Notes: a model not told the origin generated them from the sequence alone. A DNA stretch of 36,841 nt from a virus (IMGVR_UViG_2703718801_000025), one strand, 5' to 3'. Shown: positions 24,828 to 34,008, numbered from the stretch's first letter. Program-made: numbers and translations.

Positions 24828-25163
24828 TTATACTTTGCACCTCTTTGAATAATCTGCAATAATTTCCTCAACACCATCAAAAATAACTTTAAACTTTTCA
24901 AAACTAATTGTTTTACAATTTGCCTTTATAACCTTTGTTGAAAACACATGCTTACCATATTCTGTTTTTGTATCCGTATCATTAGATTTATTAAATGTCT
25001 TTCCATCAAGCACCGTTGATAGTACCGTGCTATCAAATAAATCCTCCATACAAGACTCTTTCCCTCCAGGAAGCAATGGTGTTAATAACAAATAGAGATT
25101 GTCAAATATGTGGGTATACCTTGCCTTACGAATAGTATCAACATCATTTGGACAATTTTTACT
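24828..25163 (-). pseudogene. displaced C-terminal segment of the RT-Toprim gene (-1 frame relative to the RT ORF)
   Basis: This frame is open from 25163 and reads NCPNDVDTIRKARYTHIFDNLYLLLTPLLPGGKESCMEDLFD... with no ATG or RBS of its own. Adding one base in the homopolymer at 25156-25160 joins it to the RT ORF, giving about 585 codons. Confidence 0.6.
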
Positions 25164-26584
25164 TTATCCTTTAAGTGATTTAATAAATCTTTAGGGCCTG
25201 AGTCATTATCAAGAAGCATAATAACAGGGTGCTTTGGTTTAAATTTCTCGAACCTCTTTTTTTGTTCTTGGTATCTTAATATAAATCTTTTGAAGTCTGT
25301 AGCACCGCCAGAAATGTCAAGAAAATAGCTTGTTTTTTCAGTTGCTTTAAAAAAATTAACACGATACTCATTTTTAGAGCTATCATCAGAAGAATTAAAC
25401 AATAAAGGATATGAATTCGCCAATGACTTCAAAGCACACTTTAAATATACACGGTCTGTTTTACCCTCAGTGAGTATTGTTGGCATTTCCATTCCATGAA
25501 AATTTTTATAGTATAGAAAATAACTGTAGGCTTTTTCTCTCGAATTCAATTTTGCAGTGTAATTTAATCCATGATTTACACTTTGGTACTTTTCCAACTG
25601 TCTTGCATTCTTTAGTTTTAAATTATTATATTTATCTATTGAGTCAATGAATCCAAAACGGCCTTCTAATTTAGCACATGTACCTTTTTCAATCTTTCCT
25701 GATTCAGTAACAATAACAAAAGAACCATCTTTATAAAGAGAATGAGCCATGGCACGCGTTACTTTTGCATATTCTTTGCCAACATTCACTTTTTTATTAA
25801 CAGTCAACCCAGTAACATCTTGTCGTGATGTTTTATAACAAACCCTTGTCTTTTTATCATTTATTTTAAAGCCAGCCTTTATAATCTCTTTAATTAAAGT
25901 TGGACTTAGGGTTACAGACTCTCCGCCAACATCAGCAATCTCTTTTGGAAATGTTTTTTTATTAGTTGAAAATGTAAGATCATCAGCATACCGTGAATAA
26001 TTGCATCCGTATTTCTTTGCTAACTTTGATAATCTTATATCAAGAATTCCACTGATTAAGTTACTTATAATTGGAGAGCATGGGCTTCCTTGAGGAAGTC
26101 CATTCTGAAAACATGCAATTTGTGCGATCGTTGTAGCAACAGTATTATTTAATCTAAAATCTCTGTTTGATAAGAAAAAACCTCTAACACGTCCAAAATT
26201 AAAACTATCAAAATAATCCTCAAGATCTATATTTAGTAGTAGCGTTTTACCTCTATGCCGTTCAGCATTCGTAATAATTGACTTTTCTTTTTCAAACCCA
26301 TGAGATAAAACTGGATTAATATTATATTTTTTATAAATTTCTGCACGACATAAATATAAAACATCAGCTAATCTACGTTGAATATCTTTGAGCTTAGTGG
26401 TAGGTGCTGATATGACTCTCGGCGCTCCGTTTTTTTTAGGAATAGTAAATTGTGTATACTGCGTTTCAGCTTTTAAACGATAAATAACATCCGTAAGAAA
26501 AGCAGTTTTAAGATTCAAGATACTAGCCAAATCTTGCCTGTTAGCAGCGTTTTGTAAACGTTCTAAAATTGATAGGGGTGCCAT
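25082..26584 (-). CDS. retron-type reverse transcriptase fused to a Toprim domain; frame ends early through an apparent 1-nt frameshift
   Basis: RT motifs LLNIDLEDYF, NGLPQGSPCSPIISNL and YSRYADDLTF (YADD catalytic box), then Toprim-like TEGKTDRVY and MLLDNDSG. The last 24 codons (IVQMMLILFVRQGIPTYLTISICY) look non-native. Confidence 0.8.
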   Translation of the reverse strand: MAPLSILERLQNAANRQDLASILNLKTAFLTDVIYRLKAETQYTQFTIPKKNGAPRVISAPTTKLKDIQRRLADVLYLCRAEIYKKYNINPVLSHGFEKEKSIITNAERHRGKTLLLNIDLEDYFDSFNFGRVRGFFLSNRDFRLNNTVATTIAQIACFQNGLPQGSPCSPIISNLISGILDIRLSKLAKKYGCNYSRYADDLTFSTNKKTFPKEIADVGGESVTLSPTLIKEIIKAGFKINDKKTRVCYKTSRQDVTGLTVNKKVNVGKEYAKVTRAMAHSLYKDGSFVIVTESGKIEKGTCAKLEGRFGFIDSIDKYNNLKLKNARQLEKYQSVNHGLNYTAKLNSREKAYSYFLYYKNFHGMEMPTILTEGKTDRVYLKCALKSLANSYPLLFNSSDDSSKNEYRVNFFKATEKTSYFLDISGGATDFKRFILRYQEQKKRFEKFKPKHPVIMLLDNDSGPKDLLNHLKDKVKIVQMMLILFVRQGIPTYLTISICY

Positions 26585-26614
26585 ATCTAAAAATCAACCT
26601 TGATTATCAGTTAG

Positions 26615-26755
26615 GGTAGGCACATGTAGGCACTCTTACGCAAAGCATAGGACAGCCCAAGAATGGCTACAAGGATGTCAGAAGGCGAATCCATCTAACA
26701 TTTAGATCACTGATTGCGATACCACAACCAACAAATCTGCCTACATGTGCATGTT
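26615..26755 (-). ncRNA. msr-msd: retron msr/msd non-coding RNA (template for msDNA)
   Basis: 13-bp inverted repeats gcacatgtaggca (26738-26750) and its complement (26620-26632) flank about 105 nt just upstream of the RT start, the a1/a2 arrangement of retrons; internal short hairpins present. Confidence 0.55.
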
Positions 26756-26832
26756 TAAGCTACCATGATCATTTAAGAATGTGAAGAACCGTTAACAGTT
26801 TTGAAAGAGCCAGATCATAGCATTGCGCGCGC

Positions 26833-26851
26833 TCGTATCCCCGCCACGCCT
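26833..26851. other. candidate cos (cohesive-end) site
   Basis: Minus strand reads GGCGTGGCGGGGATACGAG, closely matching the start of the 19-nt P2/186 cohesive end (GGCG[A/T]GGCGGGGAAAGCA) as remembered. Confidence 0.45.
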
Positions 26852-27229
26852 GCCCGCTTTATGCAGTGGTTTTCATGCACATGCATGACATGAGCAAAAG
26901 CCCGCCAGTTCTGGCGGATCTGAGCAAAGACGATCCTCAATCGATCATGCGATTTCATGCAGCATAGTCATGCACTGTCAAAGAAGTAAAAATCCGTATC
27001 TGAATGGCCACTTGAAAAACGGATCATACGGGTTTACAAAGATGAATGTTCGCTGTGAACGGGAAGCGGAAGTTAACTTTCAGATAACATAATCCATATG
27101 CACGAGAACCTCTAAAATAGAATGGGACACCTAAGCGGGGTACTTACAACGATTCTTTCCATATTCACAGTTAACACTCTGTTTGGCGTATTTTTATTCA
27201 AATAGCAAACACCAATAAAAGGAGTTTCC

Positions 27230-27565
27230 ATGAACAATATTCCCCCTATACCACAGTTAGGAATTTATGTCTCAAAAATCGATCCCACCCTACGTATCAC
27301 TGTAACCGATGTTGATATTGTTGATGGTGAGGATGATTCTCCTGATGATGAATTGTTTTATTTAGTCCACTGGATCGAGGGGGAAGATGAAAGTGATATG
27401 ACAGCAATGGGATTTGAGCTAGACCCAGTAGAGTGGCAGGCTTTCGTTGAATCTGAGCAATTAGTGTTTGAGCGTGATCCGTACATGGATTCAATCCCCG
27501 AAAATTCAAACTTGGCAAAGATTCGGGATTTTCTCATGAAGACTAAACAGAATGATCATTCGTAA
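27230..27565 (+). CDS. small highly acidic hypothetical protein
   Basis: 111-aa ORF with a strong RBS (aaaaggag), about 26 Asp/Glu against 7 Lys/Arg; no recognisable family. Confidence 0.5.
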   Translation: MNNIPPIPQLGIYVSKIDPTLRITVTDVDIVDGEDDSPDDELFYLVHWIEGEDESDMTAMGFELDPVEWQAFVESEQLVFERDPYMDSIPENSNLAKIRDFLMKTKQNDHS

Positions 27566-32575: not shown

Positions 32576-33062
32576 CGAGGCCAGTCACGGTATCAACTGC
32601 ACTCGCCATCGCAGGATTAGCCTGTAAACGGGCCTGCAATGAAACAGCAGCCAGCGCCATCAGTCGTGTTACAGAGTTAATGCTGCTGATAGCATCACGA
32701 CGACCGGCACTAGTTTTTACATCACCAGATACCGCACCTGCTGCAACACGTCCGATCTCTGCAGTTGCGCTCATGACGTAATGCGGCAGTTTCTCTTTTG
32801 CAACCTCATTAATCGGTACACATGGCAGGCAGTGAATCTGTGCCAGAAAACCATCTACCAGCGTTGAATCTTCTGTCAGATCGGTAAGCAGCCAGATTTC
32901 TGGTGCGGTTAATAAATGAGGTTGAGATGGGTTCAGCTTGTTCCGCAGAATCTGCACATTCATGCCAGCACGTTCTGCCAGTTGCACCAGGTTGTGGCGC
33001 AATGCGAATGCACGACAGGCTTCATCAAAATGTGGATGTTTGGAAACTTGGTAATCAAACAT
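32553..33062 (-). CDS. cII: CII-like lysogeny-establishment activator (phage 186 type)
   Basis: 169 aa from [19 protein letters not shown], the same length as 186 CII and directly downstream of the Apl/Cox gene. The track ORF extends to 33116. Confidence 0.55.
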
Positions 33063-33094
33063 GGTCGACACCCCTGATGCATCCCAAAATGGAA

Positions 33095-33316
33095 CTAGTT
33101 GAATACAACATTGCAATCAGTAAGTGCATCAACGGTAAGAGCAGCAAGGTTGATCATCACCTTTTCTCTTTTCTTGTCTTTCCGAAGGCGATGCCGAGGG
33201 ATGCGACCGTCAGCCAGCATATCGTTAATTGTGTCGATTGAAAGACCAGTAAGTTCGCTATAACGCTCAATTGTGACATGTGGCGTATTCAGAGTTATTG
33301 AAATGTTAGGGGTCAT
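33095..33316 (-). CDS. Apl/Cox-type excisionase and transcriptional regulator
   Basis: 74-aa [43 protein letters not shown] with a helix-turn-helix; SD ggag upstream; divergent from the repressor gene. Confidence 0.6.
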
Positions 33317-33411
33317 GATGCAACATCTCCTATTGGCTTGTGGTGAGCCTGTAGTAATCGTGACAAGTACCCAAATGGGGACAAAACTGATACCAGGATC
33401 GCAAAAGAGAT

Positions 33412-33651
33412 ATGTCAACATCAAAGTACCCAAGTGAGATCAAAATAAATCCCAATAAAGGTGGTAAGGCTGCGATTGAGCGATTAGTCGAAGCTTATGG
33501 CTTTACGACACGACAGGCTTTAGCTGATCACTTGGAAGTATCAAAAAGCACTCTGGCGAACAGGTATTTGCGGGATACGTTTCCTGCAGACTGGATAATC
33601 CAATGTGCTCTTGAAACAGGAACCTCACTGAAATGGTTAACCACCGGGTAA
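33412..33651 (+). CDS. cI: CI-type immunity repressor, N-terminal HTH domain only; ends at an in-frame TAA
   Basis: 79-aa ORF with a helix-turn-helix (GFTTRQALADHLEVSKSTLANRY) resembling the 186 CI N-terminal domain as remembered. Confidence 0.6.
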   Translation: MSTSKYPSEIKINPNKGGKAAIERLVEAYGFTTRQALADHLEVSKSTLANRYLRDTFPADWIIQCALETGTSLKWLTTG

Positions 33652-33720
33652 GGACTTAAGCAAAGCTCGCTGACAGTAGCCACAGAAGAGCTTCCCAAGT
33701 TTCGCCTTACCGCAGGCAAA

Positions 33721-34008
33721 ATGATTGAAGATGGTTCATATGTATTCGATTCATCATTTCTTCCTGCAAATCTTTCATCACCAATTGTTATTCAGGATGG
33801 GCTTGTCACATACATTTGTGATCAAAAATTTTCTGAAGTACTTGATGGACACTGGTTAATCAACATCGACGGAACCTATTCCATTCGAAAAATCACAAAG
33901 CTTCCAAAAGGTATGATTAAAATTACAACTACAGAGAATAGCTTTGAATGTGCATTTTCTGATATTGAAGTGGTTGCTTGTATAAGAAGTACAATAGTTT
34001 CAAATTGA
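33721..34008 (+). CDS. cI: ORF in frame with, and probably the C-terminal domain of, the CI repressor
   Basis: Same frame as 33412..33651; the 69 nt between the TAA and this ATG are fully open; no convincing RBS of its own. Confidence 0.45.
   Translation: MIEDGSYVFDSSFLPANLSSPIVIQDGLVTYICDQKFSEVLDGHWLINIDGTYSIRKITKLPKGMIKITTTENSFECAFSDIEVVACIRSTIVSN

Follow-up and report, generated by a model that had tools for sequence, protein, structure and literature searches.

A P2/186-like prophage with a truncated repressor and a mutated presumptive lytic promoter: a probable case of grounding in a Shiga-toxin Escherichia coli lineage

Introduction

The viral stretch IMGVR_UViG_2703718801_000025 (36,841 nucleotides, referred to at its full length as the window) contains a prophage of the P2/186-like type that is related to the classical retron-Ec67 element and is integrated between ybjL and rcdA at the 3′ end of the small RNA (sRNA) gene rybB. 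A sequence-only reading of this DNA had reported three disruptive changes in one otherwise intact prophage. All three are present: an amber codon (TAG) at 7648 in the tail tape measure gene T, an ochre codon (TAA) at 33649 in the CI repressor gene, and a frameshift at 25156-25160 in the reverse transcriptase (RT) gene of the retron. The span given for them, 24828-34008, encloses the CI and RT lesions and leaves the T lesion outside. A further change at 33394, which that reading missed, removes the -11 adenine of the presumed lytic promoter, pR. Taken together, the evidence makes it likely that the element is a grounded, defective prophage whose lytic promoter is dead, whose CI repressor has become dispensable and whose decay is continuing.

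In the proposed course of events, the promoter-down mutation would silence the early lytic operon (apl, cII, fil, small open reading frames (ORFs), dam, and A), and a silent early operon would allow no excision, no replication, and no progress to lysis. CI would then be dispensable for survival of the host and its loss tolerated, and the remainder of the prophage genome would drift, with the RT frameshift and a deletion in the DUF2732 gene following. The sequence-only reading had remarked that a crippled repressor beside intact replication and lysis genes would normally make a prophage unstable. That combination is real, but the premise of an otherwise intact element fails at pR, and the paradox would be answered by a dead lytic promoter, with which the host could tolerate the loss of CI.

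The CI Repressor and the Lytic Promoter

The CI frame is interrupted by a single in-frame TAA at 33649-33651, where the intact relatives UMNF18 and E7-1N7 carry CAA (Gln80). The protein is related to the CI of phage 186 of known structure (PDB 2FJR, E = 6e-27), with Pfam Phage_CI_repr (PF07022) at residues 20-83 and Phage_CI_C (PF16452) at residues 94-190; from these limits, a stop at codon 80 cuts off the linker together with the entire C-terminal domain responsible for oligomerisation. The 186 repressor works as a wheel of seven dimers joined by their C-terminal domains (PMC3675496). The intact form of this CI and the Swiss-Prot entry 'ORFi in retron Ec67' are 100% identical, which places the element in the family of the classical Ec67 element.

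Over the 941 bp from apl through CI (33090-34030), only two differences separate the window from UMNF18 and E7-1N7, namely the CI stop and a T to C change at 33394. The latter converts the -10 box TAGTAT of the intact relatives into TGGTAT, an A to G substitution at -11 on the promoter strand. A promoter scan of E7-1N7 returns TTGACA-17-TAGTAT (10 of 12 positions matching the consensus) facing apl, and the same scan of the switch in the window returns no promoter facing apl. This promoter, in its ancestral form, is the only sigma-70-like one that faces the lytic operon. Like the pR of phage 186, it adjoins the start codon of CI and is directed at apl, and in a heteroimmune relative the scan places a promoter at the corresponding position. 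Phage 186 served as positive control, its experimentally annotated pR being returned as the sole match; pL was not picked up by the scan. Promoter melting is nucleated at the -11 adenine, and in model promoters the substitution A-11T cuts RNA polymerase binding up to about 1000-fold (PMC3753650).

Only 36 of the 2823 substitutions possible in the 941-bp stretch fall in the promoter hexamers (about 1.3%), so that the pairing of a promoter change with the CI stop is unlikely to be due to chance, and both changes are present in all 14 of the 14 loci that cover both positions. The ancestral promoter 32-mer occurs exactly in 116 complete genomes, and a 61-mer carrying the mutation occurs exactly in six complete genomes only, those described below.

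Two other ways of keeping the host safe from a repressor-less prophage were weighed. A second, homoimmune prophage providing CI in trans was rejected, as each of the six complete genomes has one matching place. Alternatively, the 79-residue N-terminal fragment of CI, which comprises the helix-turn-helix domain, might still repress the lytic promoter well enough to keep the prophage quiet. This fragment retains nearly the whole Pfam DNA-binding domain, and by analogy with 186 a weakened pR would exert less convergent interference on pL, which could raise production of the fragment. In 186, however, CI needs the missing C-terminal domain to dimerise, to form the 14-mer wheel, and to bind its operators cooperatively, and the sole other change in the switch hits promoter position -11, which would be difficult to account for had the fragment been enough. 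Repression by the fragment is therefore regarded as unlikely.

Several points nevertheless weigh against grounding through a dead promoter. Assignment of TTGACA-17-TAGTAT as the lytic promoter is presumptive, drawn from its position, its orientation, and its likeness to phage 186; silencing is the most likely effect of A-11G, A-11T being the change measured in the model promoters. Variants of the 32-mer other than the mutant are found in 44 of the 166 genomes with this switch, and the N-terminal fragment of CI could keep weak DNA binding. The annotation of 186 also has CI directly repressing the promoter of the late activator B, and if this prophage is 186-like in that respect, loss of CI might turn on the late and lysis genes. 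An inactivating change in the ogr/B promoter found no support, the differences at 3110 and 3121 lying outside the candidate hexamers in a generally diverged segment; either this phage controls ogr in some other way, or the single-copy expression of ogr without replication is harmless. Finally, intermediates with just one of the promoter, CI, and T lesions were sought and not found among the complete genomes or the 14 draft loci, and metagenome contigs gave 0 matches.

Two short repeats were observed in the same region, each a possible operator piece. The 10-bp direct repeat AAGTACCCAA flanks the presumed pR (33365-33374 and 33424-33433), and the 9-mer AAATGGGGA is common to the pR region (33373-33381) and the ogr promoter region (3086-3094).

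Spread of the Lesions in the Lineage

Six complete genomes, of German, US, and Japanese origin, carry all three lesion alleles, and the prophage is essentially identical across them: 13E0725 and 13E0780 from German cattle, 2014C-3061 from a human in the USA, and three OkiPb strains from Japanese cattle. The German pair, which has the serotypes O156:H25 and O182:H25 and belongs in both cases to sequence type ST300, was sequenced on PacBio (PMC5427212). The alleles are also found in hundreds of independent draft and read-derived assemblies. Exact products were counted in a collection of 15 billion proteins, the unit being the collection block, each a slice of the assembly collection. The N-terminal fragment of T is present in 963 blocks, the 500-residue RT in 712 as against 75 for the intact RT, the N-terminal fragment of CI in 61, and the lineage-specific A protein in 1238. 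The CI count is low because NCBI's pipeline emits no pseudogene products. Ten loci with the CI fragment derive from different sequencing runs, and the promoter change is present in 10 of 10.

The promoter, CI, and T lesions are common to every lineage member examined in which the respective site is covered; the RT frameshift occurs in most members, not all. The alleles lie at one site, ybjL/rybB to rcdA, in the six complete genomes and likewise in every draft locus examined, and divergence within the lineage amounts to a few single-nucleotide polymorphisms (SNPs) per 37 kb. The prophage is passed on vertically within a clonal lineage of Shiga-toxin E. coli that is largely associated with cattle.

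This distribution bears directly on the possibility, raised by the sequence-only reading, that a single genome was wrongly sequenced or assembled at the three sites. In RT, one base of a homopolymer is changed, which is a typical error type, and a private extra T in the terminase gene of 13E0780 could be such an error. Against this stand the recurrence of the same three alleles in six complete genomes from three countries and in hundreds of independent assemblies, and the fact that two of the three lesions are base substitutions and not indels. Error as the source of the three lesions can be dismissed for practical purposes.

It is also conceivable that the prophage is still functional, the two stops being read through by an ochre suppressor or by programmed readthrough and the RT shift being bypassed by slippage. 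An ochre suppressor reads both UAA and UAG, and classical suppressors exist for Lys and Gln codons. The stop codons replace a Lys and a Gln codon, and the RT shift is located in an A-rich run. Close relatives, however, have ordinary sense codons and an unshifted frame, so that none of the three lesions is a conserved recoding signal, and the window contains no tRNA gene, so the prophage brings no suppressor tRNA of its own. The lesions are, moreover, accompanied by the promoter knock-down and by further decay in sister strains, and strong suppressors are rare and costly in wild strains. A functional prophage is thus considered very improbable.

Where identical prophages are annotated in RefSeq, T and CI are the only two of about 47 prophage genes to be marked as pseudogenes ('internal stop'), T in four genomes. 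The earlier statement that more than 40 other genes are uninterrupted is borne out by this annotation. The description 'otherwise intact' is not, as it overlooks both the promoter change (33394) and the loss of 96 bp from the DUF2732 gene.

The Tape Measure Gene

Tail assembly would be blocked independently of the promoter. The T frame (7821 to 4744) contains a single in-frame TAG at 7650-7648, which replaces AAG at codon 58 (Lys58); AAG is found there in IMT16316, the closest intact relative, which is 99.6% identical over this stretch. The other 67 differences in T between the two are mostly synonymous, indicating that the gene was under purifying selection until recently. By itself, the stop would leave any particles tail-defective. 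The TAG at 7648 was also considered as the end of the E+E′ frameshift product, and this was rejected, as it sits in the T frame and is followed by 967 further codons. Directly upstream of T, the overlap of E and E′ reflects programmed frameshifting of the normal kind and is no lesion.

The Retron RT-Toprim Protein

In the retron, the RT frame running from 26584 to 25082 shifts into the frame running from 25091 to 24828 at the five-base run 25156-25160 (A6 to A5). Strain Ec1117 has a six-base run and an intact RT of 585 residues. Restoring one base in the window gives a protein of 585 residues that differs from the Ec1117 protein by V572I only and matches the retron_Ec67_fus and RT-Toprim_I-C models end to end, whereas the truncated form covers profile positions 1-465 of 572 (PADLOC RT-Toprim_I-C, NCBIfam retron_Ec67_fus). 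Even so, with NCBIfam retron_Ec67_fus the truncated form reaches 627 bits, above the cut-off of 450, for which reason RefSeq leaves it unflagged.

Pfam RVT_1 is placed at residues 48-262 of the RT, with the YADD motif at 199-202 aligning with that of Eco2. Of the Toprim part, E373, D377, and D459/D461 (first metal site) are kept in the truncated protein. Beyond the frameshift, and hence untranslated, lie the Toprim metal-B ligands of the second metal site, with C512/E514 (Eco2 S513/E515), and the rest of the C-terminal region, with the stretch that contains the catalytic lysine. A complete C-terminal Toprim nuclease is accordingly absent from the window; it is present in loci L011 and L013, which have the six-base run, and in Ec1117. 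The Toprim domain of Eco2 comprises residues 369-586, and alanine changes at E374/D460/D462, at D378/S513/E515, or at K562 abolish defence (PMC12405507); Eco2 cuts tRNAs once its multicopy single-stranded DNA (msDNA) has been destroyed by a phage nuclease (PMC12916289). By this comparison, the truncated protein most likely keeps RT activity and lacks the nuclease, so that msDNA would be made and retron defence lost.

Just upstream of the RT gene, a repeat search revealed a1/a2 repeats at 26620-26632 and 26738-26750, 105 nt apart. The presumed non-coding RNA (ncRNA) region that they delimit shows zero differences from the Ec1117 copy, the nearest difference being at 26754. No Rfam match to a retron ncRNA family was obtained in the window at either threshold.

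Further Decay and Order of Events

Loci L011 and L013 carry the promoter and CI lesions, yet they have the six-base run with its intact RT and a full DUF2732 gene, which makes the RT frameshift and the 96-bp deletion younger than the promoter and CI lesions. The accession of an intact RT protein is 24 numbers from that of a T fragment; this fits the distance between the genes and suggests that one assembly pairs the amber T with an intact RT. Of all the lesions, the RT and DUF2732 events are the ones that the data place in order.

The 96-bp DUF2732 deletion lies between 11-bp direct repeats ATTGCTTCAGC and is not present in the six near-identical complete genomes. Its exact 45-residue product was found on 35 contigs, and the 77-residue form on at least 1000. 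The DUF2732 protein cluster also contains other, non-identical 45-residue forms, one of them named from Shigella flexneri. Such length variants hint that this repeat-mediated deletion may recur.

Additional lesions have been acquired by sister strains. In 13E0780, an extra T after window position 22671 (L002 23131) frameshifts its own terminase gene, and L014 (GCA_046575985.1) bears both a second 1-nt deletion in RT, at window-equivalent 25421, and an IS3-family insertion sequence (IS) element in dam, at window-equivalent 31014-31017. These lesions support the early prophage decay that the sequence-only reading had offered as one possibility, as does the state of the relatives, which have sense codons or a full frame at all three sites; of the readings offered, early decay has the best support. 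The comparison with related prophages that had been proposed alongside it located the intact alleles in IMT16316 (T), in UMNF18 and E7-1N7 (CI), and in Ec1117 (RT).

A further observation concerns the prophage of UMNF18 (L006, 16118-16616), which has an intact CI and the ancestral promoter and has lost ~16 kb of late genes, from a capsid gene to a tail gene. This prophage, which occupies the same site, has thus become defective in another way.

Decay or Domestication

The lesions can also be read as active domestication, in which selection disabled the lethal phage functions and the element was kept for SNIPE/PD-Lambda-1, the acyltransferase, Dam, and the retron. Cargo genes besides the retron are open in all members examined, both switch-region changes are knock-outs, which is more than neutral drift predicts, and the lineage is large with the element staying at one site. 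On the other hand, the retron is broken in most members (712 blocks versus 75), dam has been struck by an IS in one sub-lineage, and divergence is too small to test purifying selection on the cargo. As regards the earlier suggestion of a defective prophage domesticated for its cargo, SNIPE/PD-Lambda-1, the acyltransferase, and dam are open in the window and the retron is not. Selection of this kind is possible, though we give it well under even chances; it is compatible with a grounded, decaying prophage and is not a true alternative to it.

Two broader ideas extend the grounding of this prophage. Mutation of the lytic promoter might be a general first step of prophage domestication, following an ordered route in which the promoter is killed and the then useless repressor is lost, with selection against induction in a lineage carrying Shiga-toxin phage as a possible driver; this generalisation is offered tentatively. 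More speculatively, the wide spread of the RT-Toprim allele that lacks the nuclease might reflect selection, if resident prophages do not tolerate an active retron.

Organisation of the Element

The element is nearly full length at about 34 kb, with more than 40 genes open, and the coordinates of its main features are collected in Table 1. The 14-bp attachment core ATGGGTTTTTTGTT recurs exactly just past int (locus L003 and the complete genomes) within a ~26-bp imperfect repeat, which shows the element to be bounded by attachment repeats. At the left border, this core overlaps the last 14 bases of the Rfam rybB match, and the terminator of the rybB sRNA is probably supplied by the phage end.

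Table 1. Position and state of the features of the window (numbered from its first nucleotide).
Feature	Position	Strand	Remarks
Host genes grxA, ybjM, ybjL and sRNA gene rybB	1-2778		
rybB sRNA gene	2700-2778		Rfam RybB match, 105 bits
attL core ATGGGTTTTTTGTT	2765-2778		rybB 3′ end; left prophage border
ogr/B-type late-gene activator	2856-3074	-	Intact; RefSeq 'ogr/Delta-like zinc finger'
Tail tape measure gene T	4744-7821	-	1025 codons; Pfam PhageMin_Tail; in-frame amber at 7648-7650
Tail chaperone genes E and E+E′	7814-8250	-	Slippery heptamer TTTTTTG at 7987-7993; RefSeq 'phage tail assembly protein' and 'GpE family'
Acyltransferase (Acyl_transf_3) cargo	10394-11515	+	Intact; Pfam E = 3.9e-23; between tail sheath and tail fibre genes
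Terminase large subunit	21981-23747	+	Intact in window
Portal	23747-24778	+	Intact in window
Retron type I-C (Ec67/Eco2 family) RT-Toprim gene	24828-26584	-	Frameshifted; 475 native and 25 out-of-frame residues
Presumed msr-msd ncRNA region	26620-26750	-	Perfect 13-nt inverted repeats a1/a2; just upstream of RT gene
cos-like site GGCGTGGCGGGGATACGAG	26832-26850	-	15/19 positions match phage 186 cos; first 13 identical
SOS module	27758-28248	-	LexA box, 62-residue ORF and DinI-family gene; position of tum in phage 186
DinI-family gene	27758-27991	-	Pfam DinI
62-residue ORF	28002-28190	-	Before DinI-family gene
LexA box CTGTTTATATTTACAG	28233-28248	-	Perfect, CTGT-N8-ACAG; just upstream of 62-residue ORF
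Replication endonuclease A	28343-30757	-	Intact; Pfam Phage_GPA
Orphan Dam-type DNA adenine methylase	30754-31611	-	Intact in window; PADLOC oMTase E = 1e-109
DUF2732 gene	31835-31972	-	77 to 45 codons; 96-bp in-frame deletion, junction 31863-31873
Apl/Cox-like excisionase	33095-33316	-	Intact; first gene of early lytic operon; accession identical to intact relatives
Presumed pR	33390-33418	-	-35 TTGACA 33418-33413; spacer 17 nt; -10 TGGTAT 33395-33390
186-type CI repressor	33412-34008	+	198 codons; in-frame ochre at 33649-33651
SNIPE/PD-Lambda-1 defence gene (DUF4041 and T5orf172)	34029-35705	+	Intact; Pfam and PADLOC
Integrase	35789-36841	+	Intact; its stop codon ends the window; attR and rcdA beyond the window

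The P2-type late gene set is present in the P2 order (D-U-T-E-FII-FI ... H-I-J-W-V ... lysis ... L-M-N-O / P-Q), as judged from RefSeq annotation of identical prophages and from Pfam, with ogr, D, U, T, E/E′, FII, FI, and then G to O on the minus strand. Window positions 1-24000 show ~96% DNA identity over ~77% to the P2-like Klebsiella phage 4LV2017, and the ogr/B-type protein has one accession common to all relatives. Past A, the early region comprises dam, a traR-like gene, DUF2732, DUF5347, fil, cII, and the apl-like gene. A disabling change in the replication gene A was considered and rejected, the single lineage-specific substitution being the conservative V108I. Likewise, a split tum gene was rejected as a lesion; the layout of the 62-residue ORF and the DinI-family gene is unchanged in intact relatives, and the pair may be a two-gene version of the 186 tum (SOS-induced antirepressor) induction module.

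Cargo is carried at three places. The acyltransferase gene, held in an island of low GC content (0.32-0.36), could encode a product that modifies surface polysaccharide. The retron, which also forms a low-GC island, is inserted between the cos-like site and the portal gene, where phage 186 has <200 bp. The SNIPE/PD-Lambda-1 gene between CI and int is the third cargo site besides these two islands, and its E144A change (SNP at 34459) is private to the window.

Relation to Known Systems

The closest model for the switch is coliphage 186 (Eganvirus, Peduoviridae), with which the prophage shares the P2-type late order, a two-domain CI, and an identical succession of Apl-like, CII (Phage_CP76), and Fil genes. 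Further counterparts are a presumed sigma-70 promoter, next to the cI start and directed at apl, a DinI-type SOS module near cos, and an ogr/B activator. Unlike 186, the prophage has its own immunity sequence and resides at rybB instead of a tRNA-Ile gene. It has the retron, SNIPE, Dam, and the acyltransferase in addition, and with the promoter -11 A, CI, and T mutated it is predicted to yield no viable phage.

With retron Ec67/Eco2 the element shares the YADD motif, the Toprim E/D/DxD residues, and the a1/a2 inverted repeats of the presumed ncRNA region, as well as the Dam gene and the ~26-bp flanking repeat; the original Ec67 element of Hsu et al. (1990) reportedly had a Dam methylase gene and an imperfect flanking repeat of ~26 bp. 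In contrast to Eco2, the RT of the window is only 56% identical, has Cys at the equivalent of Eco2 S513, and loses its frame after residue 475. The prophage also resembles cryptic prophages fixed in lineages in that it occupies one site across a clone, carries regulatory and structural point knock-outs, and shows ongoing decay with open cargo genes. It differs from the usual cryptic prophages in its very early stage, at which the first disabling steps can still be read as single-base changes.

Significance

As genuine mutations, the two stops and the frameshift mark a large clone of Shiga-toxin E. coli associated with cattle, within which the RT run length, the DUF2732 deletion, and the IS in dam are usable as sub-lineage markers. 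Defence surveys that count retrons would overcount here, the 500-residue protein being listed by RefSeq as a normal retron Ec67 family gene although residues needed for defence in Eco2 are missing from it. The prophage is a clean but ordinary case of early prophage decay. In it, a one-base knock-down of the lytic promoter, of a kind missed by standard protein-based annotation, provides a concrete candidate reason for the stability of a prophage without its repressor.

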